Assembly: GCA_040220855.1 (NCBI GenBank)
Contig: JAVJVZ010000076.1
Span: 26,220 to 90,219 of the forward strand
Reading direction: 5' to 3'
DNA length: 64,000 nt
DNA from: Gammaproteobacteria bacterium
GTDB lineage: Bacteria > Pseudomonadota > Gammaproteobacteria > Ga0077536
Shown piece by piece: positions 26,116-51,669 of the stretch. The position numbers and the translations under genes are program-made. Below the pieces are notes generated by a model that did no database searches, was not told where the DNA came from, and saw only the letters and a list, made by a program, of their open reading frames with translations. Each line of letters begins with the position of its first letter. Position 1 is the first letter of the stretch.

Positions 26116-26263
26116 TGACGGCGGGAAGACCGACCGGCGGCGCCGCGGAAAACGCCCTGAATGGGCGATGAAAAACTCCCGCGTGGCGGTTGCCGCTTCC
26201 GTGCACCGCGGCGCAGCGCGAGAATGCCGGGAGACCGCACCGACCTTATTCACACGCGCCTGT

Positions 26264-29165: not shown

Positions 29166-30065
29166 TCAGCTCGAGGTGCGATCGAGGGGCAGCGCGGCGA
29201 GCGCAGCGGCGAACTGCATGTCGAGTGGTTGCTCCAGGGTGTCGGCGGACAGGGCGTCGAGCACTTCGCCGAGACGTCGTTCGAGCAGCAGTTGCAGGCG
29301 GTAGCGCGCGCGCGCGGCGAGCCGTCCGGCGCGGTCCGCGTGCTCGTCGAGCCAAGCCTGGTGGGCGTCGATGGCTGCCGAGAGCGCGCTGATGGAGTCG
29401 CCATCGTGGATCGAAGTCAGCACCACCGGGGCCTGCCAGCCGTCATGGGCGGCGCGCAGCGCCTGTACGCGACGGATTTCGGCGGCGAGCTGGGCGGCAC
29501 CGGCGAGCTCGCTCTTGTTGACGACGTAGATGTCGGCAAGCTCCATGGTGCCGGCCTTCATCGCCTGCACCGTATCGCCAGCGCCCGGCATCAGCACCAG
29601 GGCAAGGGTGTCGACCTGGCTGCGGACCGCGTGTTCGGCCTGGCCGACGCCGACCGTCTCGAGCAGCAGTTCCTCGAAGCCGGCCGCGGCCAGCGCTTCG
29701 AGCAGTTCGGGGAGATTGTCGGCGAGGCCGTCACTGTGTGCGCGCGAGGCGATCGAGCGCAGGTAGAGATTCTCGGCACCGGCGAGTTCGTCGAGGCGGA
29801 TGCGGTCGCCGAGGATGGCGCCGCCGGTGAGCGGGCTCGACGGGTCGACCGCCAGCATGCCGATGCGGTGGTGCGCCGCGCGCAGCAGCGCGAGGCGTCC
29901 GGCGAGACTGCTCTTGCCGACGCCGGGGGCGCCGGTGAGACCGATGCGCGGAACCGTCGCCGGCGTCGCCGGCGCCAATGCCAGCACGTCGGCGACGCTC
30001 GCATCGGCGAGCTGGCCGAGACGCCGGGCCAACGCGCGGCGGTCGAGCGTCGCATCGCCGGCCAT
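29166..30065 (-). CDS. meaB: methylmalonyl-CoA-mutase-associated G3E GTPase (MeaB/ArgK)
   Basis: P-loop GAPGVGKSS, then switch and NKxD (VVNKSEL) motifs. Confidence 0.85.
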   Translation of the reverse strand: MAGDATLDRRALARRLGQLADASVADVLALAPATPATVPRIGLTGAPGVGKSSLAGRLALLRAAHHRIGMLAVDPSSPLTGGAILGDRIRLDELAGAENLYLRSIASRAHSDGLADNLPELLEALAAAGFEELLLETVGVGQAEHAVRSQVDTLALVLMPGAGDTVQAMKAGTMELADIYVVNKSELAGAAQLAAEIRRVQALRAAHDGWQAPVVLTSIHDGDSISALSAAIDAHQAWLDEHADRAGRLAARARYRLQLLLERRLGEVLDALSADTLEQPLDMQFAAALAALPLDRTSS

Positions 30066-30068
30066 GAC

Positions 30069-30509
30069 TCAGGCGAGCGCGGCGCCGAGGGCGGCGACGA
30101 CGTCTGCGAGCGGCTGGTCGCTGGTGTAGATGCCGCGCACGCCGAGTGCGCTGAGCGCGGCATGGTCCTCCGCCGGCACGGTGCCGCCGACGAACAACGC
30201 GATGTCGTCGGCGTTCTCTGCACGCAGACACTCGACGACCTGTGCGACCAGCTCGCGATGGCTGCCGGAAAGGATCGACAGGCCGACGGCGTCGACGCCT
30301 TCGTCGATCGCGACGCGCGCGATCTGCTGCGGACTCTTGCGCAGGCCGGTGTAGATGACTTCAGCGCCGGCGTCGCGCAGCGCGAGCGCGACCACCTTGG
30401 CGCCGATGTCGTGGCCGTCGAGGCCCGGCTTGGCGACGAGAATGCGTTTGCCGCGCAGTGGCGCCGCACCGTTGCCGGCAGCGGCGTTCGAAGTCGTGGG
30501 GGTGCTCAT
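30069..30509 (-). CDS. acyl-CoA mutase small subunit, cobalamin-binding domain
   Basis: B12-binding DxHxxG (GLDGHDIGAKVV) Rossmann-like domain, 146 aa. ATGA overlap with the large-subunit stop. Confidence 0.85.
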   Translation of the reverse strand: MSTPTTSNAAAGNGAAPLRGKRILVAKPGLDGHDIGAKVVALALRDAGAEVIYTGLRKSPQQIARVAIDEGVDAVGLSILSGSHRELVAQVVECLRAENADDIALFVGGTVPAEDHAALSALGVRGIYTSDQPLADVVAALGAALA

Positions 30510-32110
30510 AGTCTCACCGGCTCCTGGAATTCGCCCCATTCGGCTTTCAGTTGCGTGACCATCTCGCCGACCGTGACGTAGGCGTGGCAGCAGTCGACCA
30601 GGTAGGGCATGAGGTTCTCGTCGTCGCGCGCGGCGGCACGGCCGAGCGCGGCGAGGCTGCGCTCGACCGCGGCAGCATCGCGGGTGTCGCGGATACGTTC
30701 GTATTTCTCGATCACGCGCGCGGCGGCATTCGGATCGACCTGGAACGTCTCGCCGATACCGCGGGTGGCGTCGTCACGCGCGAAGAAGTTCTGCCCGACG
30801 ATGACACTTTCACCGCGGTCAACCTTCTGCTTGCGCTCGAGCGCGCGCTCGGCGATGCGCATCTGCAGCCAGCCGTCCTCGATCGCTTTCTCGACGCCGC
30901 CGTAGTCGTCGATCTCGCGCATCACGGCGCCGATCGCGTCCTCGGTCTGGTTGGTCAGGTGCTCGACGAGATAGCTGCCACCGAGCGCGTCGACGCTGCG
31001 TGCGATGCCGCTCTCGTAGGCGAGAATCTGCTGCGTGCGCAGGGCGAGTTCGGCCGAGCTCTCGGTCGGGATCTGGAAGGCCTCGTCGTAGGCACAGGTG
31101 AAGATCGACTGGGCACCGCCGAAGACCGCTGCCATCGTCTCGACCGTGACGCGCACCACGTTGTTCATCGGTTGCGGTGCGACCAGCGAGGAACCGCCAC
31201 AGACCACGCCGAAGCGGAACATCAGCGCTTTCTCGTCCGTCACCCCGTAACGATCCTGCAGCAGCTTCGCCCACAGGCGGCGCCCGGCGCGGAACTTGGC
31301 GATCTCCTCGAAGAAATCCTGGTGCACGTAGAAGAAGAACGACAGGCGGCGCGCGAACCTGGCCACGTCACCGCCGCGCCGGCGCAGCTCGTCCACGTAG
31401 GCAAGGCCGTTGGCGAGCGTGTAGGCCATCTCCTCGACGGCGGTCGCGCCGGCATCGCGCACGTGGGCGCCGGCGATGCTGATCGGGTTGAAGCGCGGCG
31501 TGACCTCGTTGGCGTAGAGGATGGTGTCGGCAATGAGGCGCATCGAAGGGCGCACCGGGAAGATCCAGGTCCCGCGCGCGACGTACTCCTTGAGGATGTC
31601 GTTCTGGATGGTTCCGGTCAGCTTCTCACGCGGTACGCCGAGCTTGTCGGCAGTGGCGAGGTACATGGCGTAGATGATCGCCGCCGTGCCGTTGATCGTG
31701 AAGGAGGTCGAGATGGCGCCGAGATCGATGCCGTCGAAGAGGATCTCCATTTCGGCGAGGTTGGACAGCGACACGCCGACCTTGCCAACCTCGGGCCGCG
31801 CCATCGGATCGTCCGGGTCGTAGCCGCACTGGGTGGGCAGGTCGAGCGCCACCGAGAGGCCTGTCTGGCCCTGCTCGAGCAGGAAGCGGTAGCGCGCGTT
31901 GGTGTCCTCGGCGGTGCCGAAGCCGGAGTACTGGCGGATGGTCCACAGGCGGCCCTGGTAGCCGTCGGCAAAGATGCCGCGGGTGAATGGCGGGGCACCG
32001 GGCGTACCGATCCGATCGGGATCGAGGAGCTCGGGGCCGGCGGTGACCGGTATTTCGAGACCGGCCATGGTGCGTGTCCCGAGCGTCGGCCGGGGGCGGG
32101 TACTGCTCAT
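30506..32110 (-). CDS. methylmalonyl-CoA-mutase-family large (catalytic) subunit, split type
   Basis: 534 aa TIM-barrel substrate domain (…[40 protein letters not shown]…[16 protein letters not shown]…) without a fused B12 domain. Confidence 0.9.
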
Positions 32111-39350: not shown

Positions 39351-40904
39351 TCAACAAAGGTCGCCCTGGCGCAGGCGAAATCGCTGAATCTTACCGGTCG
39401 CGGTTTTCGGCAGGACATCGATGAACTCGATCCAGCGCGGGTACTTGTAGGGCGCGAGCCGGTTCTTCACGTGTTGCTTGAGGCTGTCGGCGAGCGTATC
39501 GCTGGCGTCGTGGCCGTCCTTGAGGACGACGAAGGCGCGCGGTTTGATCAGCCCGGCTTCGTCGGCGTGGCCGACCACGGCCGCTTCGAGCACCGCGTCG
39601 TGCCCGATCAGGGCAGCTTCGACCTCCGCCGGCGAGACGTAGATGCCGCCCACCTTGAGCATGTCGTCGCTGCGTCCGCAGTAGACGTAGTAGCCATCGT
39701 CGTCCTGGCGGTACTTGTCGCCGGTGCGCGTCCACGTGCCGGCGAAGGTGTGGCGGCTGCGCGCCCGGTTGTTCCAGTACATCGCCGCGGCGGTCGGGCC
39801 GGCCACCTGCAGCTCGCCGATGTCGCCGCTGGCGACAGGCTCGCCCGTATCGTCGACGATGCGCAGCGCGTAGCCGTCGACGGCGCGGCCGGTGGTGCCG
39901 TAGCGCACGTCGCCGGGGTGATTGGACAGGAAGATATGCAGCATCTCGGTCGAACCGATGCCGTCGAGGATGTCGACGCCGAATTGCGCATGCCAGCGCG
40001 CGCCGAGTTCCGCCGGCAGCGCTTCGCCCGCCGAGGTGCATACGCGCAGGGCGAGCGCCTCGCGCGACGGCAGCGCCGGGTGCGCGAGAAGGCCGGCGTA
40101 GAGCGTGGGAACGCCGTAGAAAATGGTCGCGCCGTGTTCCTGCAGGCGCGCGAATACCGCCTCCGGCGTCGGCCGCTCGGCCATCAGCACGGTGGTCGCG
40201 CCGACGCTGAGCGGGAACGACAGCGCATTGCCGAGGCCATAGGCGAAGAACAGCTTGGCGGCGGAGAAGACGACGTCGTCCGCGTTGATGCCGAGGATCG
40301 GGCGCGCATACAGTTCCGCGGTCAGCGCGAGCGAGGCATGCACGTGCACGGTGCCCTTGGGGCGTCCGGTCGAGCCCGACGAGTAGAGCCAGAAGCACGG
40401 CTCGTCGCTGCAGGTCGCGGCAACGCTGTCGTCACCGTCGGCGGCGGCGAGCAGGGCCGCGAGTGCGTCCTCCGAGCCGCCGCTGACGACGACACGCTCG
40501 AGTGTCGGCACGCTCGCTTGGAGGCCTTCGAACTGTGGCGCCAGCGGCGCCGACACCACGGTGACGCGGGCGCGGCTGTCGCTGAGCATGAAGGCGTAAT
40601 CGTCGCGGGTCAGCAGCGTGTTGACGAGCACCGGTACGATTCCGGCGCGGATTGCGCCGAGAAACAGCACCGGTAACGCGAACGTATCGTGCATGGCCAG
40701 CAGCACGCGCTGCTCCGGGGCGATACCGAGGGCACGCCACATCGCCGCGGCACGGCGCACCGCGGCGTCGAGCTCGGCATAGGTGTAACGCCCGTGGTCG
40801 TCGATGTAGGCGAGCTTGTCGCGGTAACCGGCGGCGAGGTTGCGCTCGACGAGGTCGGCCGCGGCGTTGTACGACCGCGGCGCCACGTCCAGGCCGGCGC
40901 CCAT
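39351..40904 (-). CDS. bclA: benzoate-CoA ligase family (AMP-forming)
   Basis: 517 aa; AMP-binding motifs YSSGSTGRPKG, GTTGRAVDGY and the C-terminal PKTATGKIQR lysine motif. Start ATG overlaps the ferredoxin stop (TGATG). Confidence 0.85.
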   Translation of the reverse strand: MGAGLDVAPRSYNAAADLVERNLAAGYRDKLAYIDDHGRYTYAELDAAVRRAAAMWRALGIAPEQRVLLAMHDTFALPVLFLGAIRAGIVPVLVNTLLTRDDYAFMLSDSRARVTVVSAPLAPQFEGLQASVPTLERVVVSGGSEDALAALLAAADGDDSVAATCSDEPCFWLYSSGSTGRPKGTVHVHASLALTAELYARPILGINADDVVFSAAKLFFAYGLGNALSFPLSVGATTVLMAERPTPEAVFARLQEHGATIFYGVPTLYAGLLAHPALPSREALALRVCTSAGEALPAELGARWHAQFGVDILDGIGSTEMLHIFLSNHPGDVRYGTTGRAVDGYALRIVDDTGEPVASGDIGELQVAGPTAAAMYWNNRARSRHTFAGTWTRTGDKYRQDDDGYYVYCGRSDDMLKVGGIYVSPAEVEAALIGHDAVLEAAVVGHADEAGLIKPRAFVVLKDGHDASDTLADSLKQHVKNRLAPYKYPRWIEFIDVLPKTATGKIQRFRLRQGDLC

Positions 40905-41223
40905 CAGAACTCGGGCGCGAGCGTCAGGCGGATGCCATCCAGCTCGTCGACGTACGGCACCTGGCAGGCGAGGCGGGACCTCTCCTCGAAATGCCCGGAG
41001 TCTTCCACCATCACCTGCTCGTCGGTCGCACGCGGCGCGAGTTTGCCGGTCCATTCTTCGTCGACGTACACGTGGCAGGTCGAACAGATGCACTGGCCGC
41101 CGCAGATGGCCTCGATGGGCAGCCCGCCGTCACGCAGGATCTCCATCAGCGTGTAGCCCGCGCGCGCTTCGAGCCGGTGCTCTGCGCCGTCGCGGTCGGT
41201 TGCGATCACGGTACCCATCGAGC

Positions 41224-41227
<4 letters not shown>
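40904..41227 (-). CDS. adrenodoxin/putidaredoxin-type [2Fe-2S] ferredoxin
   Basis: 107 aa; CGGQCICSTCH (C-x5-C-x2-C) plus a distal LACQV cysteine. GTG start overlaps the boxB stop (GTGA). Confidence 0.8.
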
Positions 41228-42642
<1,415 letters not shown>

Positions 42643-42660
42643 GTCGGGTTACCTCCGCCG

Positions 42661-44346
42661 CTACACGCGGCGCTTGTCGTATTGCGGGCGCTCGCCGGTG
42701 CCGTAGAGCACCAGTGCGCCCTGCTCGCCCACCGCATTGGGACGCTGGAAGATCCAGTTCTGCCATGCGGACAGGCGCGCGAAGATTTTCGATTCCATCG
42801 TCTCCGGGCCGGGGAAGCGGATGTTCGCTTCCATGCCGGTCAGCGCGTCGGGCGAGAAGCCCGCGCGAGCCTCGACCAGGATGCGCAGCTCGTCGTCCCA
42901 GTCGATGTCGTCGGGGATGAAGGTGACCAGGCCGAGCTGCTCGGCACGCGCGGCGTCGAGCGGCTCGGCACCGAGCGCGGACAGACGCGCGATGGCGTCG
43001 GGGTCGTCGAGGCTGCGTGCCTCGAGGCGCGTAAGACCGTTGACCATGCGCAGCCAGCCGAAATTCGCCGGCGACAGTACGACGCTCGCTGGGGGGCGTT
43101 CGTCGTCCTCGAAGCGGCCGTCGAGCATGAAGCTCTGGTCAGCGGCGAGCACCAGCTCGAGCAGCGTGCCGGCGAAGCATGAGCCGGGTTCGACGGCGGC
43201 GATCAGCGAGCGCGCGGAGACGTCGACGCGCTTGAGCACGCGCTGCGCGTAGAGTCGCACCTCGCGCACGAACCAGTCCTCGGCATGCGCGTCGAGCAGG
43301 GCATCGGCGGCGAGTACGCGGCCGGCATCTCCTGCGCTCTTGAACATCCACGTGCCAACGGCTTCCTCGTTGAAGCGCAGGTGCAGGATGGCATCATCGA
43401 GCGCACGCATCACGGCGAGTGGCCAGAAGGCCGCGCCAGCGGCGTGGATACCGGCGAGATCGCCCGGCAGCTCGTCGCTGGGTCCATGCACGACGAAGGT
43501 GGCGAGGCGTTGTGCGCGGTCGATGTGCACGTCGAGATGCGCGTAGCGCAGCGTGTCGCCCTGAACCTGCCGTGACAGCGGCGTGAGTGCGATTCCGCTG
43601 GTCGACGCCGGCCGATCGCTTCCGGCGGCGAGTTCGGCTGCGCGTGCACGCACGCTGTCCTCGAAAGCGGAGGCCGGCACGACGTGGTCGACCAGGCGCC
43701 AGTCGAGCGCTCGTTTGCCACGCACGCCCTCCTCGACGGTGCAGAAGAAGTCTGCGCGGTCGCGCCGCACGTGGCGCTTGTCGACCAGGCGCGTGAGGCC
43801 GCCCGTGCCGGGTAGCACCGCGAGCAATGGCAGCTCGGGCAGCGACACCGCGCTGGCACCGTCGTCGGCGAGGATAATCTCGTCGCAGGCGAGGGCAAGC
43901 TCGTAGCCGCCGCCGGCACAGGAGCCTCTGACCGCGGCGAGGTAGACCTGGTGCGAGTGATTCGTCGCATCTTCGATGCCGTTGCGCGTTTCGTTGGTGA
44001 ACTTGCAGAAGTTCACCTTGTGCGCATGCGTCGCGCGACCGAGCATCTTGATGTTGGCGCCGGCGCAGAACACGCGATCGTGCTTCGAATGGACGACCAC
44101 GCAGCCGACCTCCGGATGCTCGAAGCGCAGGCGCTGCACGGCGTCGTAGAGTTCGATGTCGACACCGAGATCGTAGGAATTGAGCTTCAGCTCGTAGCCA
44201 TCGCCGATGGTCGCCTGCTCGTCGACGGCGAGGCCGAGCCAGGCGACGTTGCCGTCGATCTCGAGCTGCCAGTGATGGTAGTGCTCCGGCGCGGTGCGGA
44301 AATCGATCACGCGGGCGGGACTCGTCGCGGGGGCGGCGGTGGGCAT
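42661..44346 (-). CDS. boxC: 2,3-epoxybenzoyl-CoA dihydrolase / benzoyl-CoA-dihydrodiol lyase
   Basis: 561 aa, two crotonase-like domains (…FCAGANIKMLG…, …SCAGGGYELALACD…). Start at MPTAAPAT…; the ORF extends upstream through low-complexity codons. Confidence 0.8.
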   Translation of the reverse strand: MPTAAPATSPARVIDFRTAPEHYHHWQLEIDGNVAWLGLAVDEQATIGDGYELKLNSYDLGVDIELYDAVQRLRFEHPEVGCVVVHSKHDRVFCAGANIKMLGRATHAHKVNFCKFTNETRNGIEDATNHSHQVYLAAVRGSCAGGGYELALACDEIILADDGASAVSLPELPLLAVLPGTGGLTRLVDKRHVRRDRADFFCTVEEGVRGKRALDWRLVDHVVPASAFEDSVRARAAELAAGSDRPASTSGIALTPLSRQVQGDTLRYAHLDVHIDRAQRLATFVVHGPSDELPGDLAGIHAAGAAFWPLAVMRALDDAILHLRFNEEAVGTWMFKSAGDAGRVLAADALLDAHAEDWFVREVRLYAQRVLKRVDVSARSLIAAVEPGSCFAGTLLELVLAADQSFMLDGRFEDDERPPASVVLSPANFGWLRMVNGLTRLEARSLDDPDAIARLSALGAEPLDAARAEQLGLVTFIPDDIDWDDELRILVEARAGFSPDALTGMEANIRFPGPETMESKIFARLSAWQNWIFQRPNAVGEQGALVLYGTGERPQYDKRRV

Positions 44347-44356
44347 CGGGTGCTCC

Positions 44357-45250
44357 TCAGTGGGCGGTGATGAGCTCGCGCACGGGCGGCAGTTCGAGCA
44401 GCGCCGTGAGCGCCTGCTCGACACCGTTGGCGGAGGTATCGATGGTGTAGTCGGCGCGGCCGTAGAGGCTCGCGCGCTCGTCGAGGATACGGCGCAGGTC
44501 GGCCATCGCGTTGCGGTGATCGGCCATCGGACGGTAATCGCCCTGCGCGATCACGCGCTCCATGTGCTCGCGCGGCGCGGCTTTCAACCAGACGGTACAG
44601 CACGACGCGAGCAGGAAATCGAAGGTGCGTGGCTCCGATACCAGGCTGCCGCCGCAGGCGATCACGGCATGCTCGAAGCGATCCAGCGAGGCAGCCAGCG
44701 CGGCGCGTTCGTGACGCCGGTAGGCGGTCTGCCCACCGCGCGCGAGAATCTCGCTCACCGCCATGCCGGCGTTGCGCTCGGTTTCCTGCACCAGTTCGAC
44801 GAACGGCACGCCCAGCCGCTTGGCGAGCGCCGCACCGAGGGTACTCTTGCCGGCGCCGCGCAGGCCCACCAGCGCGATGTGACGGGGAACGGGTGAGGGT
44901 CGCTCGCGAGTCGAGGCGAGCAGCGTGGCTAGGCGCGTCAGCTCGTCTTCGCCGGCGCCGCGCAGGCGCTCGCGCAGCAGCAGGTACTCGACGCTCTGCT
45001 CGACGCGCGCATCGACGAGATCGTCGAGCGCCACGTGCATGGCGGCAGCGATCGCGCGCAACACCAGTATCGAGGCGTTGCCCTTCCCCGCCTCGAGCTG
45101 GGCAAGGTAGCGTTCCGAGACGCCGGACGCGGCAGCAAGGATGCGCCGTGACATGCCGCGCCGCGCGCGCACGCGGCGCACGCGCGCGCCGAGCTGGGCC
45201 AGGTAGTGGCCACTCTCGCTGGCTGGGTCGGCGGACGCAGGGACACTCAT
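44357..45250 (-). CDS. boxR: BoxR/BzdR-type regulator (XRE HTH + shikimate-kinase-like domain)
   Basis: N-terminal XRE HTH (GMSRRILAAASGVSERYLAQLE), C-terminal P-loop GLRGAGKSTLG and shikimate-kinase fold. 10 nt upstream of boxC. Confidence 0.8.
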   Translation of the reverse strand: MSVPASADPASESGHYLAQLGARVRRVRARRGMSRRILAAASGVSERYLAQLEAGKGNASILVLRAIAAAMHVALDDLVDARVEQSVEYLLLRERLRGAGEDELTRLATLLASTRERPSPVPRHIALVGLRGAGKSTLGAALAKRLGVPFVELVQETERNAGMAVSEILARGGQTAYRRHERAALAASLDRFEHAVIACGGSLVSEPRTFDFLLASCCTVWLKAAPREHMERVIAQGDYRPMADHRNAMADLRRILDERASLYGRADYTIDTSANGVEQALTALLELPPVRELITAH

Positions 45251-45412: not shown

Positions 45413-46840
45413 ATGGGCGAAGAAATCGCGACGACCACCTTCTGCGCGGCGGACTTCGAGCGTTTCGCTGCACGCCTCGACGACGAGACGGCCGCGCTGG
45501 CGGCGCTGTTCGAGGCCGGTACGCTGTCCGACAGCGGTTACACCTGGGGCTTCGAACTCGAGGCCTGGCTGCTCGACCACGGGCTGCACCCGACGCCGGT
45601 CAATGCCGCGCTGCTGGATGCCCTCGGGCGCGACGATGTCGTCCCGGAGCTGTCGCGCTTCAACGTCGAGCTCAATACCGCGGTACGCGATTTCGCCCCG
45701 CACACCTTCAGCGCCGCCGAGCGTGATCTCACCACGCAGTGGTCGGCGTGCAACGCGGTCGCACACGGGCTCGATGCCAACATGGTTGCCATCGGCTCCC
45801 TGCCGACCATTCGCGACGCCGATCTCTCGATCGACAACATCTCGCCACTCAAGCGCTATTACGCCCTCAACCACGAGCTGCTCGCGGCCAACCGCGGGCG
45901 CCCCCTGCAGATCCGTATCGAAGGGCGCGAGCGGCTGACGCTGAGCCATGCCGACGTCATGCTCGAAGCGGCGGCGACGTCCTTCCAGGTGCATCTGAAG
46001 ACCCCGTGGTCGCTCGCTCACCGCTACTACAACGCTTCGCTCGCGCTGTCGGCGCCAGTGCTCGCGGCGGCGGCCAATGCACCGTTGCTGTTCGACCGGC
46101 TGCTATGGGAAGAGACCCGCATACCGCTTTTCGAGCAGGCCATCGCCGGCGTCGCCGGGCCCGCCGCAGCGGTGCCACGGGTGACCTTCGGCAGCGGCTA
46201 CCTGGATCACACGCTGTTCGAATGCTTTGCGGAGAATCGCCGCGCGTTCCCGGTGCTGCTGCCGATCGGTTTCGACGAGTCGCCCGCCGCTTTGCGCCAC
46301 CTGCGCCTGCACAACGGCACCATCTGGCGCTGGAATCGCCCGCTGGTCGGCTTCGACGGCGACGGCGTCCACGTGCGCCTCGAGCACCGTGCGCTACCGG
46401 CCGGGCCGAGCCTGGCCGACATGATCGCCAATGCCGCACTCTATCTCGGCGCCACCCACGAATGGGTCATGCGCGACTGCGTGGCACGGGTCACCGCGAG
46501 CGATGCGCGGGCGAATTTCTACGCTGCCGCCCGCCACGGTCTCGACGCCACGCTGCGCCGCGACGGCGGAACCTGTGCGGCCCGCGCGTGGCTCCTCGAC
46601 GAAATCGTCGACGACGCTGACGCGGGTCTCGCGCGCCTCGGTATCGCCGCGGAGGAGCGTGCGCGCTACCTCGGCATCGTGCGTGCGCGTGTCGCCAGCG
46701 GGCAGACCGGCGCGGCCTGGCAGCGCGCCTGCTACCTCGCGCAGGGCCGCGATGCCTACGCGCTGATGGCGGCTTATTGCGAACTGCAGCGCAGTGGGGC
46801 GCCGGTGCACGAATGGCCGCGGCCGGGGGCCGCGCGATGA
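45413..46840 (+). CDS. glutamate-cysteine ligase family 2 (GCS2/YbdK-like) carboxylate-amine ligase
   Basis: 475 aa; YbdK-like ATP-dependent ligase. Family call from overall architecture and size; no single diagnostic motif verified. Confidence 0.7.
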   Translation: MGEEIATTTFCAADFERFAARLDDETAALAALFEAGTLSDSGYTWGFELEAWLLDHGLHPTPVNAALLDALGRDDVVPELSRFNVELNTAVRDFAPHTFSAAERDLTTQWSACNAVAHGLDANMVAIGSLPTIRDADLSIDNISPLKRYYALNHELLAANRGRPLQIRIEGRERLTLSHADVMLEAAATSFQVHLKTPWSLAHRYYNASLALSAPVLAAAANAPLLFDRLLWEETRIPLFEQAIAGVAGPAAAVPRVTFGSGYLDHTLFECFAENRRAFPVLLPIGFDESPAALRHLRLHNGTIWRWNRPLVGFDGDGVHVRLEHRALPAGPSLADMIANAALYLGATHEWVMRDCVARVTASDARANFYAAARHGLDATLRRDGGTCAARAWLLDEIVDDADAGLARLGIAAEERARYLGIVRARVASGQTGAAWQRACYLAQGRDAYALMAAYCELQRSGAPVHEWPRPGAAR

Positions 46841-46874
46841 TGGCGCCCGTCAGCTGCCGCCCGGGCGGTCCGCC

Positions 46875-47912
46875 ATGAGCGGGCTGCGCGTCTTCGACCA
46901 CCTGCCGCACGGCCTGCTAGCGGCACGGCCGCAGGACCTCGCACGGCTGCTCGGCGGCCCGACGCTATTCGACCTGCCCGCGCGTGCGCACGCGGCCGCC
47001 GCGGCGCCCCTGTTCCTCTCCACGCTTCTGCACGGCAACGAGGACACCGGCTTCGAGGCCGCCAAGCGGGTGCTCGCCCGGCACGGGGTGGACGGCCTGC
47101 CGCGACCGCTGTTGCTCTTTCTCGGCAATGTCGAGGCGGCGGCGGCGCAGCGGCGCACGCTGCCCGGTCAGCACGATTTCAACCGCGTGTGGCCGGGCTC
47201 GCCATTGCCGGAGTCATGCGAGCGGGCGCTCATCGCCGAGGTGTTCGACTACGTCCGCACCCGTGCGCCTTTCGCGAGCATCGACATCCACAACAATACG
47301 GGGCTCAATCCGCACTACGGTTGCATCAACCGTCTCGACGAACGCTGGTTCCACCTCGCCCGCCTGTTCAGCCGTACCGTGGTCTATTTCACCGAGCCGA
47401 CCGGGGTCCAGTCCGCAGCCATGGCGACGCTGTGTCCGGCGGTGACGGTCGAGTGCGGCAAGGCGGGTGTCGCCGCCAATATCGTTCATGCCGAGGCGTT
47501 CATCGAGGCCTGCCTGCACCTTGCCGAGCTGCCCCACGCCCCGTTACCCGCGCACGACCTCGATCTCATGCGCACGGGTTGGATCGTGCGCGTGCCGGCC
47601 GGCGCGAGCCTGTCGTTCGACGACAGCCCGGCCGACTTCATGTTCCGCCGCGATCTCGATCACCTGAATTTCAGCGAGTTGCCGACCGGCACCTCGTTCG
47701 GCCGGCTCGGCGGCGCGCACGGCGAGCGCCTGGCGGTAGTCGACGGCGGCGGTGGTGCGATCGACGCGGTATTCGACTACCGCGACGGGTGCATCCGCCT
47801 GGCGCGGCCGGCAGTGCCCGCGATGCTGACCTTGGACGCCGAGGCGGTGCGCCTGGACTGCCTGTGTTACCTCATGCAGCGCATCGACCGCCGCGGGCAG
47901 GCGCTGCCGTGA
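46875..47912 (+). CDS. succinylglutamate desuccinylase / aspartoacylase (AstE/AspA) family zinc deacylase
   Basis: 345 aa; …LLHGNEDTGFEA… and …IDIHNNTG… His/Glu zinc ligands characteristic of the M14-like AstE/AspA fold. Confidence 0.65.
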   Translation: MSGLRVFDHLPHGLLAARPQDLARLLGGPTLFDLPARAHAAAAAPLFLSTLLHGNEDTGFEAAKRVLARHGVDGLPRPLLLFLGNVEAAAAQRRTLPGQHDFNRVWPGSPLPESCERALIAEVFDYVRTRAPFASIDIHNNTGLNPHYGCINRLDERWFHLARLFSRTVVYFTEPTGVQSAAMATLCPAVTVECGKAGVAANIVHAEAFIEACLHLAELPHAPLPAHDLDLMRTGWIVRVPAGASLSFDDSPADFMFRRDLDHLNFSELPTGTSFGRLGGAHGERLAVVDGGGGAIDAVFDYRDGCIRLARPAVPAMLTLDAEAVRLDCLCYLMQRIDRRGQALP

Positions 47913-48685
47913 GCCTGCTCGCCGCCGACGAGCCGGCACCCTTCGTGGTCGAGCGCGCCGCCGGCACGGCGCCGTTCTTTCTGACCTGCGACCATGCCGG
48001 CACGCGCATCCCGCGTGCCCTCGGCGACCTCGGTCTCGCGCCGGGCGCCCTCGAGACGCACGTCGGCTGGGACATCGGTGCGCTCGACGTCGCGCGGGAC
48101 CTCGCTGCCCGCCTCGATGCCACGCTCGTCTGGCAGCCCTACTCGCGTCTCGTGGTCGATTGCAACCGTCCGGTGTCGAGTCGTCAGCTGGTCCCCGCGC
48201 GCTCCGAGCGGACCGCGATTCCGGGGAATCTCCGCGTCGATGCCGCCGCGCGCGCGCAGCGCCTCGCTGCCATTCATGCGCCCTACCATGCCGCCATCAC
48301 GCGCCTGCTCGATGCGCGTGCCGCGCGTGGCCAGGCCAGCGTCTACGTTGCCGTGCACAGCTTTACGCCCGTCTACGACGGCCAGCCGCGCCCGTGGCAG
48401 CTGGCGGTGCTCTACGGCGCGGATGCGCGCCTCGCACGGCCGCTCATCGACCTCGCGCGGGCGGACGCTGCGCTCGTCGTCGGTGACAACGAACCCTACC
48501 GTATCGACGAGGAAGATTACGGCGTCCCGGTGCACGCGCTGGGACGTGGCCTGCCCAATGCGCTGCTGGAGCTTCGCCAGGACGAGCTCGTGGCGCCCGC
48601 TGCTGCCGCACGCTGGTCGGAACGCCTCGCCAGCCTGCTCGTCGCGGCGCTGGAAACGCTGCAAAACAGCGCCGATCCGGCCTGA
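47909..48685 (+). CDS. N-formylglutamate amidohydrolase (FGase) family protein
   Basis: 258 aa; …FFLTCDHAGTRIP…VAVHSFTP… matches the FGase/HutG-like family. GTG start overlaps the preceding stop (GTGA). Confidence 0.7.
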   Translation: MSLLAADEPAPFVVERAAGTAPFFLTCDHAGTRIPRALGDLGLAPGALETHVGWDIGALDVARDLAARLDATLVWQPYSRLVVDCNRPVSSRQLVPARSERTAIPGNLRVDAAARAQRLAAIHAPYHAAITRLLDARAARGQASVYVAVHSFTPVYDGQPRPWQLAVLYGADARLARPLIDLARADAALVVGDNEPYRIDEEDYGVPVHALGRGLPNALLELRQDELVAPAAAARWSERLASLLVAALETLQNSADPA

Positions 48686-48899
48686 ATTGCGCGGCCAAAA
48701 ATAACACTTGCATTCTGCGCCGAGATCTATACCCTGCGCGTCCTCCGTGAGTGACTGGCGGCGTAATTCAAGACCGAAGGAGGTGAACCAAGCCGTTTCA
48801 TAGCCTCGGCCGGGTTCGGTATCAAGCCCGAACCGACTGGGCGCAGAGCCTTGAACGGCACTGCGATTTCAAAGACCTTGCTGGGTGGGGGTAATACCG

Positions 48900-49298
48900 A
48901 TGTCTGAACATCAACCTATCTGGGGGCAACACCTCATCATCGACCTCGCGGGCTGCCCGCGGGACCGTCTCACCGACGCCGACCACCTGCGCTCGTGGGT
49001 CAAGGATCTCGTCGACACCATCAAGATGAAAGCGTACGGCGAGCCTCAGCTCGAGCACTTCGCCACGCATTCGTATGATGCGGCCGGTTTCACTCTGCTA
49101 CAGCTGATAGAGACCTCGAACATCTGCGCGCACTTCGCGGAGAACCTGGGGCAGGTCTATATCGACATCTTCTCCTGCAAGTCCTTCGACAACGACCTGG
49201 CGGTGGCCTGCTGCAGGAAGTACTTCGAACCCGAAGTCGTTGAACTGCACCTGATCGAACGCGGTAAGTTCCAAGCCTCGCTGCAAAAGGCGAGTTGA
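48900..49298 (+). CDS. S-adenosylmethionine decarboxylase-related small pyruvoyl-enzyme proenzyme (SpeD class 1, paralog 1)
   Basis: 132 aa; …GQHLIIDLAGC…FTLLQLIETSNICAHF… corresponds to the HLxxDLxGC…LAESHISIHTWPE family, with ETS in place of ESH at the cleavage motif. Confidence 0.65.
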   Translation: MSEHQPIWGQHLIIDLAGCPRDRLTDADHLRSWVKDLVDTIKMKAYGEPQLEHFATHSYDAAGFTLLQLIETSNICAHFAENLGQVYIDIFSCKSFDNDLAVACCRKYFEPEVVELHLIERGKFQASLQKAS

Positions 49299-49301
49299 GG
49301 G

Positions 49302-50168
49302 ATGGCCGGTCAGTTCGTCGAAAGCCTGTACACGGGACAGGCTTTCCAGGGCTTTTTCTACGACAAGCTGCTGTTCGAGGCTGACACCGAATACCAGTCG
49401 ATCCGGATCTACGACGTGCCCTGGCTGGGGCGCGTCCTGGTCCTCGACGGTATCGTGCAGACCACCGAGGCCGACGAGTTCATCTACCACGAGATGCTGG
49501 CGCACGTACCGCTGATGTCGGTGGCGGCGCCGCAGCGCGTGATGATCGTCGGCGGCGGTGACGGCGGCACGTTGCGGGAAGTGCTCAAGCACCCGGTCGA
49601 GAAGGTCGACCTCGTCGAAATCGACGAGGTCGTGATCTCGAGCGCGCGCGAGTTCCTGCCGACGCTCAACGACGACGGGCGGGCGTTCGATGATCCGCGG
49701 GTCGAAATCGTGGTGCGGGATGCCTTTCAATACATGAAGGAGCATACCGGCGAGTACGATGCGATCCTGATCGATTCGACCGATCCGGTCGGCATGGCCG
49801 AGGCGTTGTACTCCGACGAGTTCTACCGCCTGTGTCGGGATGCCCTGTCGCCGCAAGGCGCGCTCAGCGCCCAGGACGGCGTGGTGTTCTTCCAGCGCGA
49901 CGAGGCGGCGCGCACGGTCGCCGCGCTGCGGCGCCTCGGTCTCAGCGCGGGTGCCTACATTGCGGCCGTGCCGACCTATTATGGGGGCTCGATGACCTTC
50001 GGCGTCGCTGGACGCGATGCCGCCGTGCTGACGCCCGATGTCGATACCCTGGCGGCACGCTTTGCTGCGCTGACGGGCACCACCCGGCACTACTCGCCGG
50101 CCGTGCACCAGGCGAGTTTCGTGCTGCCACGCTGGATCGAGGAAGCGGTGGAGGGGAAAAAACAATGA
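49302..50168 (+). CDS. speE: spermidine synthase (polyamine aminopropyltransferase)
   Basis: 288 aa; VLVLDG…, GGGDGG and DSTDP motifs. Confidence 0.85.
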   Translation: MAGQFVESLYTGQAFQGFFYDKLLFEADTEYQSIRIYDVPWLGRVLVLDGIVQTTEADEFIYHEMLAHVPLMSVAAPQRVMIVGGGDGGTLREVLKHPVEKVDLVEIDEVVISSAREFLPTLNDDGRAFDDPRVEIVVRDAFQYMKEHTGEYDAILIDSTDPVGMAEALYSDEFYRLCRDALSPQGALSAQDGVVFFQRDEAARTVAALRRLGLSAGAYIAAVPTYYGGSMTFGVAGRDAAVLTPDVDTLAARFAALTGTTRHYSPAVHQASFVLPRWIEEAVEGKKQ

Positions 50169-50575
50169 AAGAACTGCCCGATCACTTCAAGAAGGATGCC
50201 CGTGGCAATGCCTATGCGGGCGATCACCTGCTGGTCGAACTGTGGGACGCCTGCAACCTGACCGATGCCGCCCACATCGAGCAGACGCTCGACCAGGCGG
50301 CCCATGCGGCCGGGGCGACGGTGCTGCACGCCTATTACCACCCCTTCGGTGAAGGCCAGGGCGTGAGTGGCGTCACGGTGCTGGCGGAGAGCCACATCAG
50401 CATCCACACCTGGCCGGAGCGCGGCTACGCTGCCATCGACGTCTTCATGTGCGGTGACTGCGATCCGAATCTCACCGTTCCCATCCTCACCGAGGCGTTC
50501 CGTCCGGGGCGCATCGAGACCCGCCTGTTCAAGCGCGGCTGCGAGCCGGCCAGCGCGATGCAGAGCGTGGCCTGA
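50165..50575 (+). CDS. speD: S-adenosylmethionine decarboxylase proenzyme (class 1b)
   Basis: 136 aa; GDHLLVELWDC…VLAESHISIHTWPERGYAAIDVFMCG, a canonical ES-cleavage pyruvoyl motif. ATGA overlap with the speE stop. Confidence 0.8.
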   Translation: MKELPDHFKKDARGNAYAGDHLLVELWDACNLTDAAHIEQTLDQAAHAAGATVLHAYYHPFGEGQGVSGVTVLAESHISIHTWPERGYAAIDVFMCGDCDPNLTVPILTEAFRPGRIETRLFKRGCEPASAMQSVA

Positions 50576-50730
50576 GCGGAGCGCGCCCGGCGTTCCCCCG
50601 CCCGGCGTACCGGCAGCGCGCGACGCCTGCTGGTACGCCGCCATCTTCCGGCGTGCACTGCGCCCCGTCAGCGGCGTCGGCGCACGCCTGTTAAGATCGG
50701 CGCCCCGTTCACCCAGCACGCCGGCCTGCC

Positions 50731-51669
50731 GTGACCGCAATCCCCGTCAAACTGAATCCGCCCGTCCGCCGCGGCGACCCGCGCAAGCAGCGCGTCGATG
50801 CCGGGCGGCTGCAGCAGCGCCTGCGCCGACTGGCCGGCAAGGCGATCGGCGACTACGCCATGATCGGTGCCGGCGATCGCGTCATGGTCTGCCTGTCGGG
50901 CGGCAAGGACTCCTACACGCTGCTCGACCTGCTGCTCAGCCTGCGCGAGCGTGCGCCAGTCGATTTCGAACTCGTCGCGGTGCATCTCGACCAGAAACAA
51001 CCGGGCTACCCGCCGGCGGTGATGCGCGACTACCTGGCCGGTCTCGGCATCGAGCACCATGTCATCGAGCAGGATACCTACTCGGTGGTCAAGCGCGTGG
51101 TCCCCGAGGGACGCACGATGTGCGGACTTTGCTCACGCCTGCGCCGTGGCATCCTGTATCGCTTCGCCACCGAGCATGGCATCACCCGTATCGCGCTCGG
51201 ACACCACCGCGACGACATCGTCGAGACGGTGTTCCTCAACATGTTCTTCGGCTCGAAACTGAAGGGCATGCCGCCGAAACTGCTCAGCGACGATGGCCGC
51301 CACGTCGTCATCCGCCCGCTCGCCTACTGCCGCGAGACTGACATTGCGCGCTATGCCGAGTCGCGCGGTTTCCCGATCATCCCGTGCAACCTGTGTGGCA
51401 GCCAGGACGGTCTGCAACGGGCCCGCGTGAAAGCGATGCTCGCCGAGTGGGAGCGCGAGCAGCCGGGGCGGGTGGAGAACGTGTTCCGCGCGTTGCAGAA
51501 CGTGGTGCCGTCACATCTCGCCGACACCGGGCTGTTCGATTTCGCGGCGCTCGGCGACGCTGGCGCTGCGCAGCGTCATGCGGCACGCGACTGGCTGGTC
51601 GGTGATGGCGGCTTGTCGGCGCCGGAGGGTGCGGACGGCATCGATGACGAGGACGGCGACCGCCGCTGA
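50731..51669 (+). CDS. ttcA: tRNA 2-thiocytidine(32) synthetase
   Basis: Collinear with E. coli TtcA (…[12 protein letters not shown]…[10 protein letters not shown]…IPCNLCGSQ…). GTG start. Confidence 0.85.

Follow-up and report, generated by a model that had tools for sequence, protein, structure and literature searches.

Why should a bacterium carry two proteins of the S-adenosylmethionine decarboxylase (AdoMetDC) fold on either side of one spermidine synthase gene, and what does the altered copy do? The question is raised by a 64,000-nucleotide (64-kb) stretch of DNA from a Gammaproteobacteria bacterium (assembly GCA_040220855.1, contig JAVJVZ010000076.1, forward-strand positions 26,220 to 90,219), here called the window, in which speE lies between two such genes at positions 48900–50575. 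An earlier note on this DNA had proposed that the upstream copy, whose self-cleavage motif is altered, is either a neofunctionalised decarboxylase, for arginine or ornithine, or a regulatory prozyme. Because signature residues, profile scores, phylogeny and gene context agree, we favour the neofunctionalised decarboxylase, and the same evidence points to ornithine; arginine is not favoured. The upstream paralog is probably a SpeDC-type pyruvoyl-dependent L-ornithine decarboxylase, the substrate being assigned from the sequence. The enzyme class itself was reported in 2023 under the name SpeDC, whereas the branch to which the paralog belongs is uncharacterised.

The upstream paralog and its kinship with SpeDC

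The three genes lie on the forward strand and form a translationally coupled operon. The first, a speDC-like gene (48900–49298), begins with ATG and encodes a 132-aa class 1b AdoMetDC-fold proenzyme of the same length as its homologues, here predicted to be a pyruvoyl-dependent L-ornithine decarboxylase. It matches PF02675 (E=6e-23), and against the AdoMetDC equivalog TIGR03330 it scores 46.7 bits, under the cut-off of 75.65. Its stop codon TGA (49296–49298) lies 3 nt ahead of the ATG of speE (49302–50168), whose product is a spermidine synthase (aminopropyltransferase) by NF002010 (307.7 bits, cut-off 260), TIGR00417 (278 bits, cut-off 249.6) and PF01564 (E=1.5e-55). The speE stop overlaps the start of speD (50165–50575) in an ATGA at 50165–50168. 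SpeD is a canonical class 1b AdoMetDC proenzyme of 136 aa (PF02675, E=5e-35; TIGR03330, 124.3 bits against the same cut-off), with its cleavage site at Glu75-Ser76, His81, Cys96 and an HTWPE motif. The two paralogs flanking speE, both matching PF02675, and the ATGA coupling of a canonical Glu-Ser SpeD to speE were thus correctly described beforehand. The paralogs are 27% identical (BLASTP, E=8e-10), and no polyamine genes beyond the operon were found elsewhere in the 64-kb window.

Both BLASTP and MAFFT place E71-T72-S73-N74 of the paralog opposite A74-E75-S76-H77 of SpeD. Since S73 aligns with SpeD S76, the pyruvoyl-forming serine is retained in the paralog, with the preceding residue changed from Glu to Thr and the following one from His to Asn. 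The description of an altered motif is therefore correct as far as the quoted motifs and the absence of HTWPE are concerned, but its equation of ETS with ESH was one residue out of register, and the serine is kept. Relative to Ser73, the paralog has His78 at +5 and Cys93 at +20, a spacing equal to that of S63, H68 and C83 of the Thermotoga maritima enzyme, the residues needed there for processing and catalysis (Li et al. 2023, PMC10407285). The equivalents of Ser73, His78 and Cys93 are invariant in 53/53 aligned members of the paralog family and classical SpeDC, and all 120 classical SpeDC relatives listed keep the S-x4-H-x14-C block. Because Ser73 aligns both with Ser76 of SpeD and with the IETS serine of SpeDC, self-cleavage is predicted between Thr72 and Ser73 (codons at 49113–49118), Ser73 becoming the pyruvoyl group; the predicted chains are a beta chain of residues 1–72 and an alpha chain of residues 73–132.

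The structure prediction agrees with the earlier statement that the two proteins, 132 and 136 aa long, share size and fold. An AlphaFold model of the paralog (mean per-residue confidence, pLDDT, 90.4) superimposes on T. maritima AdoMetDC (1TLU) with template-modelling (TM) scores of 0.79/0.88 and a root-mean-square deviation of 1.6 Å, and residues 71–72 form the turn joining strands 63–70 and 73–80. It was this fold search that gave 1TLU; a sequence search of the PDB with the paralog returned a marginal AdoMetDC match alone (2III, E=0.3), and the structural alignment with 1TLU shows 20% identity. The paralog thus has in common with class 1b AdoMetDCs (SpeD/SpeH; 1TLU/1VR7 and Aquifex 2III) the fold and the processing Ser, His and Cys at identical spacing. 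Where those enzymes have Glu-Ser and HTWPE, however, it has Thr-Ser and HFAEN, with the Trp, Pro and Glu lost; E81 stands where bona fide AdoMetDCs have the conserved Pro of HTWPE.

Many bacterial and archaeal SpeD duplicates are pyruvoyl-dependent decarboxylases of L-ornithine (SpeDC) or L-arginine (SpeDA) (Li, Liang, Phillips and Michael 2023, J Biol Chem 299:105005, PMC10407285). SpeDC has been assayed from Atribacteria, Anaerolinea thermophila, Sumerlaeota and Methanomicrobia, and in fusions from D. phosphitoxidans and Omnitrophica OLB16. Its genes cluster with speD and speE, and in the clusters of Atribacteria, Anaerolinea and Sumerlaeota the two paralogs were shown experimentally to be an AdoMetDC and an ornithine decarboxylase (ODC). 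In the SpeDC domains of D. phosphitoxidans and OLB16 the pyruvoyl serine sits in Q-L-I-E-T-S, and the substitution S229A kills ODC activity. Four residues, Gln, Thr, Phe and Tyr, tell SpeDC ODCs from AdoMetDC and SpeDA (all PMC10407285). The paralog carries all four, as Q68, T72, F79 and Y87, in a block QLIETS..HFA..YIDIFSCK that it has in common with the D. phosphitoxidans and OLB16 SpeDC domains and with 120 relatives. Its motif region reads LQLIETSNICAHFAENLGQVYIDIFSCK, and the counterpart in the OLB16 domain is VQLIETSLVSGHFANCSNGAYIDIFSCN.

The similarity extends beyond these residues. Among the assayed SpeDCs the comparator was the complete OLB16 domain, the D. phosphitoxidans row being incomplete. 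The paralog is 33% identical to this domain (BLASTP, E=1e-18), against E=0.002 for the SpeD of the window. A search with the OLB16 domain found 906 proteins, and the pattern Q[LF]I[ED]TS...HFAN...FSC[KQR] is present in all 120 of those listed. Scored against hidden Markov models built from 111 OLB16 relatives (classical SpeDC) and from 61 SpeDs of the same operons, the paralog reaches 104.3 bits with the former and 33.6 bits with the latter. Classical SpeDC conserves, at 35 positions, residues that are rare in SpeD; the paralog agrees with SpeDC at 17 of these and with SpeD at 2. In a neighbour-joining tree (500 bootstraps), built from sequences other than the published assayed SpeDC set, the paralog family and classical SpeDC form one clade at 82% and are split from SpeD at 100%, with classical SpeDC alone supported at 99%. 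Overall, the paralog resembles classical SpeDC in fold, size, Ser/His/Cys triad, conserved block and the gene set speDC, speE and speD. It differs in belonging to a separate sister branch, at 30–40% identity, and in the proteobacterial hosts of its family.

Distribution, gene order and selection

We detected 329 members of the paralog family, usually 132 aa long, and among them IETSNI[CSA]AHFAEN is nearly invariant down to 59% identity. Relatives are encoded in 392 genomes of the GTDB (one genome per species), and the best 80 of these, which were used for all gene-order counts, are almost all from uncultured Gamma- and Alphaproteobacteria, groups not listed for SpeDC in PMC10407285. The order decarboxylase-speE-speD is found in 57/80 loci, so that the arrangement of the window is conserved. 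The decarboxylase gene has neither speD nor speE nearby in 14/80 loci, and a further 5/80 are incomplete or at contig ends. The stand-alone copies adjoin housekeeping genes (thrS, uvrB, hemB and others), a context that is uninformative. On three contigs (L005:6001-6664, L006:5417-6080 and L007:6001-6686) a small PF26604 (CBU_0592-like) gene comes after a stand-alone AENRG variant; the three represent two lineages, L005 and L006 encoding the same protein.

In the remaining 4/80 loci, all from metagenome-assembled genomes (MAGs) of Alphaproteobacteria, the decarboxylase is fused in frame to SpeE. These fusions (L062:5995-7239, 414 aa, and others in L075, L077 and L081; proteins P0241-P0252) are about 402–438 aa long and have a decarboxylase domain of the window type, MIETSNIAAHFAEN. 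With the L062 fusion as query, about 13 protein clusters of the same architecture were found in a set of 5.8 billion proteins. None of the matches was a named Pelagibacter protein, which is suggestive and not decisive, and in the literature searched we found no published description of a fusion of a window-type decarboxylase to SpeE. A canonical speD and a second speE precede the fusion gene, and in L062 there then comes a 414-aa open reading frame (ORF) that resembles, by eye, a flavin amine oxidase.

Several operons that are 71–84% identical at the decarboxylase to those of Gammaproteobacteria MAGs stand under doubtful taxon labels or reflect doubtful binning. These are L023 and L035 ('Klebsiella pneumoniae'), L026 ('Klebsiella sp.'), L040 ('Hydrogenophaga intermedia'), L024 ('Chthoniobacteraceae') and L083 ('Pirellula sp.').

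Of the three genes in the operon the paralog evolves most slowly, and purifying selection on it is strong. Between the window and L011-L025, its ratio of nonsynonymous to synonymous divergence (dN/dS) was 0.04–0.16, and every comparison gave it a lower dN than speE or speD, in most cases about half as large. Over short distances the dS of the paralog was lower too, at 0.27–0.33 against 0.5–0.6. The possibility that the paralog is a pseudogene, which the earlier note had named as a finding that would refute its proposal, is contradicted by these ratios.

Substrate of the paralog

If the paralog is an ODC, the operon would encode a complete route from ornithine to spermidine. The paralog would be translated as a 132-aa proenzyme and would cleave itself between Thr72 and Ser73, aided by His78 and Cys93, with Ser73 converted to an N-terminal pyruvoyl group. 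The processed enzyme would then decarboxylate L-ornithine to putrescine and would be expected to lack AdoMetDC activity. SpeD, cleaved at Glu75-Ser76, would supply decarboxylated AdoMet, and SpeE would combine it with putrescine to give spermidine. Homologues of E. coli SpeA, SpeB and SpeC were absent from the ORFs of the 64-kb window and from the ±6-kb flanks of 90 loci in a phmmer search run with no positive control.

Several observations weigh against ornithine as the substrate. The paralog family is sister to the assayed SpeDCs and not nested in them, and its own monophyly has a bootstrap of 57%. It departs from the assayed SpeDCs at 18/35 signature positions, and the replacements are mostly themselves conserved. 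Asn74, next to the pyruvoyl serine, stands in place of Leu or Met, and E81-N82 in place of N-x, so that AEN-x-G is found where SpeDC has AN-x-x-N; A77 is likewise a conserved residue of the family's own at a SpeDC signature position. Classical SpeDC has an acidic G-x-E-D-E loop where the paralog has A55, H57, S58 and Y59 (A-T-H-S-Y). The alignment positions of the four diagnostic residues were, moreover, deduced from the sequences in Fig. S5 of PMC10407285. Finally, two phage homologues show that substrate varies across the broader lineage: the protein of Pelagiphage HTVC201P, within the SpeDC clade, is an arginine decarboxylase (PMC10407285), and that of Sinorhizobium phage phiN3 rescues an E. 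coli speD deletion and is thus an AdoMetDC. Because about half of the signature positions of the assayed SpeDCs differ, ornithine is a substrate that we infer for the subfamily as a whole.

The phiN3 protein (YP_009212407) raises the possibility that the operon holds two true AdoMetDCs, the paralog being either a redundant copy or an isozyme under different regulation. It is the top phage match to the paralog (33.6% identity), it groups with ODC-type homologues in spite of its activity, and it shares with the paralog the Gln, Phe and Tyr, the FSCK motif and the lack of HTWPE. The SpeE fusions do not settle the substrate either, because Pelagibacter has AdoMetDC-aminopropyltransferase fusions whose AdoMetDC domain is functional. 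However, phiN3 keeps an AdoMetDC-like Asp-Ser-His at its cleavage site (Q-D-S-H), whereas in the paralog Thr precedes the serine and Asn follows it (E-T-S-N); the SpeDC profile gives 104 bits for the paralog and 57 for phiN3; and phiN3 falls outside the clade, supported at 82%, that unites the paralog family with SpeDC. A second AdoMetDC would also be redundant with the canonical SpeD of the same operon, and the paralog's score is under the TIGR03330 cut-off. We regard this reading as improbable.

The conserved residues peculiar to the subfamily, which replace half of the SpeDC signature including the G-x-E-D-E loop and the residue after the serine, could instead reflect a different amino acid substrate such as lysine or 2,4-diaminobutyrate, from which SpeE would produce aminopropylcadaverine or norspermidine. 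Yet the core QLIETS/HFA/YIDIFSCK is identical to that of the ODCs, SpeE resembles an ordinary spermidine synthase, and no SpeD homologue assayed so far acts on lysine (PMC10407285). A substrate of this kind would come as a surprise.

Arginine, the other substrate named in the earlier note, would make the paralog a SpeDA-like decarboxylase whose agmatine is aminopropylated by SpeE, an unlinked ureohydrolase then completing spermidine. SpeD has given rise to arginine decarboxylases at least three times, once inside the SpeDC clade as HTVC201P (PMC10407285), and residues of the family near the active site are unlike those of the assayed ODCs. SpeDA and the SpeD-derived arginine decarboxylase of Crenarchaeota (Sulfolobus) followed the same route that we propose for the paralog, a SpeD duplication and then a shift of substrate. 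SpeDA, however, stays near AdoMetDC in sequence, its central region lacking only the Pro, whereas the central region of the paralog is SpeDC-like and contains all four ODC-diagnostic residues. Most characterised speDA genes also cluster with speB or aguA/aguB, and with speY (PMC10407285), but no agmatinase (SpeB) homologue was found with the E. coli SpeB query in the window or the 90 loci, and SpeE is above the cut-offs of the spermidine-synthase equivalogs. We consider arginine unlikely on these grounds.

The precedent for a regulatory role is found in trypanosomatids, where a catalytically dead, unprocessed AdoMetDC paralog, encoded alongside the enzyme as in the window, activates AdoMetDC in a heteromer. 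That the paralog is such a prozyme for the SpeD with which it shares an operon is the least likely of the readings, to the point of being very hard to credit, because its catalytic Ser, His and Cys are invariant while the T. brucei prozyme and degenerate domains (the C-terminal domain of Victivallis, for example) no longer have them, because the gene also occurs alone, and because it evolves more slowly than speD, although the T. brucei heterodimer structures 5TVM/5TVF are weak fold matches to the paralog model. A SpeDC-type L-ornithine decarboxylase is thus the reading that we prefer.

The 5′ leader, neighbouring genes and wider meaning

The operon is preceded by a 214-nt spacer that is conserved blockwise in related genomes. 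Most of it is a 158-nt conserved 5′ leader on the forward strand (48742–48899), with an invariant core (48742–48799), two hairpins (48805–48841 and 48842–48865) and a Shine-Dalgarno sequence, GGGUGGGGG (48883–48891), that is predicted to pair with a CCUCC at the 5′ end (48742–48746). Directly upstream lies what we read as a promoter-like block (48708–48735), TTGCAT and TACCCT separated by 16 nt, which is conserved in the alignments; in relatives the second hexamer is TAAAGT. A consensus promoter scan did not call this block.

A covariance model (R1) built from 16 copies found 24 copies of the leader counting that of the window, 17 in genome loci (L011-L025 and L042) and 7 on metagenome contigs, and all 24 lie directly upstream of the operon. 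The model found no second copy within the 64-kb window and missed the leaders in front of more distant operons. A pattern scan of metagenomes gave 22 matches, of which 7 were true leaders upstream of the operon and 15 were not; 12 matches without any R1 match look like chance. Compensatory changes were seen at 7 base pairs, compared with 2.5 in shuffled alignments, and 0/500 shuffles reached 7. Almost all of these changes are in the two hairpins, and the invariant core is uninformative on its own pairing. Conservation of the leader is 0.69–0.96, against 0.45–0.86 at 4-fold degenerate sites of the adjacent gene, and the fold energy of the single sequence is no better than that of shuffles (z=−0.01). 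A small ORF was also considered and rejected, as neither stop codons nor reading frame are conserved.

Rfam 15, which includes SAM-I and speF, gave no match at E<=1 in 48300–51000 and none in five related loci, and with the leader alone at E<=10 it returned chance microRNA matches only. The leader is a credible candidate for a cis-regulatory RNA whose ligand is hypothetical. Transcription of the operon would start at its own promoter-like block and run through this conserved, partly structured leader, which may govern translation by sequestering the ribosome-binding site. It may sense ornithine, putrescine, spermidine or a derivative of S-adenosylmethionine (SAM), with the pairing of CCUCC and the ribosome-binding site as the gate. 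One validated class of polyamine riboswitch was found in the literature searched, a rare SAM-I variant in Bacillota that senses spermidine and acts by transcription termination (Salvail et al. 2023, PMC10853860). Like the leader, it is structured and stands ahead of polyamine genes of the speD/speE type. It differs from the leader in architecture and host phylum, the leader having no SAM-I match, and in mode of action, the helix with the Shine-Dalgarno sequence being a prediction. There is some chance, although we would not count on it, that at least one of two things is true: that the leader is an undescribed metabolite-sensing RNA, or that the proteobacterial ETSN/AHFAEN subfamily acts on a substrate other than ornithine.

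Other lineages have leaders of their own. In the sister lineage L026-L040 a different conserved leader occupies roughly 180 nt ahead of the decarboxylase gene (for example L026:5823-6006). It contains an invariant GGCUUUGUGAGUUGUUCC and a covarying helix that abuts a GAGGG ribosome-binding site, with compensatory changes at 9 pairs (0/500 shuffles). A third type of long, conserved upstream region, covering about 250 nt ahead of the decarboxylase gene, is seen in single-cell genomes of marine Alphaproteobacteria (L060 and L063-L080). It has the pattern GGUUAUGCAACGGCGUAAAUG...GGGGCGGG-hairpin-CCCAUCCGCC, and its hairpin seems to stay paired despite sequence change.

Upstream of the operon, three co-directional genes (45413–48685) encode a GCS2-type carboxylate-amine ligase, labelled from the Pfam annotation of an identical gene in L001, an AstE/AspA-like deacylase, and an N-formylglutamate-amidohydrolase-family protein (FGase). 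The FGase gene adjoins the operon in every relative with the window type of leader (group 1). The GCS2-type ligase and deacylase genes are missing in L004, the one relative with upstream genes listed, and any link of the three genes to ornithine supply is speculation. Farther upstream (39351–45250) are an AMP-binding CoA ligase, a PaaA/PaaC-like oxygenase, an enoyl-CoA hydratase-family protein and a divergent regulator with helix-turn-helix and shikimate-kinase domains. We read these genes as a box-type cluster for the benzoyl-CoA pathway, with a regulator resembling BoxR/BzdR, and as unrelated to the operon; a role of the regulator gene in controlling the operon was considered and set aside, since the gene more likely belongs to this adjacent cluster. 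The region 29166–32110 has ordinary content: a split methylmalonyl-CoA-mutase-type enzyme (large and separate B12-binding subunits), a MeaB GTPase and a neighbouring IclR regulator.

Spermidine synthesis from ornithine by a SpeDC-like gene together with speE and speD would be ordinary for the SpeDC enzyme type, though new for proteobacteria. Its current annotation is functionally misleading if the ornithine assignment is right, because the source names read 'S-adenosylmethionine decarboxylase'. The leader is a concrete candidate for the regulation of polyamine synthesis in Gram-negative bacteria, and the subfamily's own conserved active-site neighbours offer a useful test of what determines specificity for ornithine. 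If the assignment is true, the range of SpeDC would extend to proteobacteria, where it was unreported before, and the route from ornithine to spermidine would be present as one three-gene unit in the 57 loci with the window's gene order. Many uncultured Gamma- and Alphaproteobacteria would then form putrescine with a small self-processing pyruvoyl enzyme and not with a decarboxylase dependent on pyridoxal phosphate.

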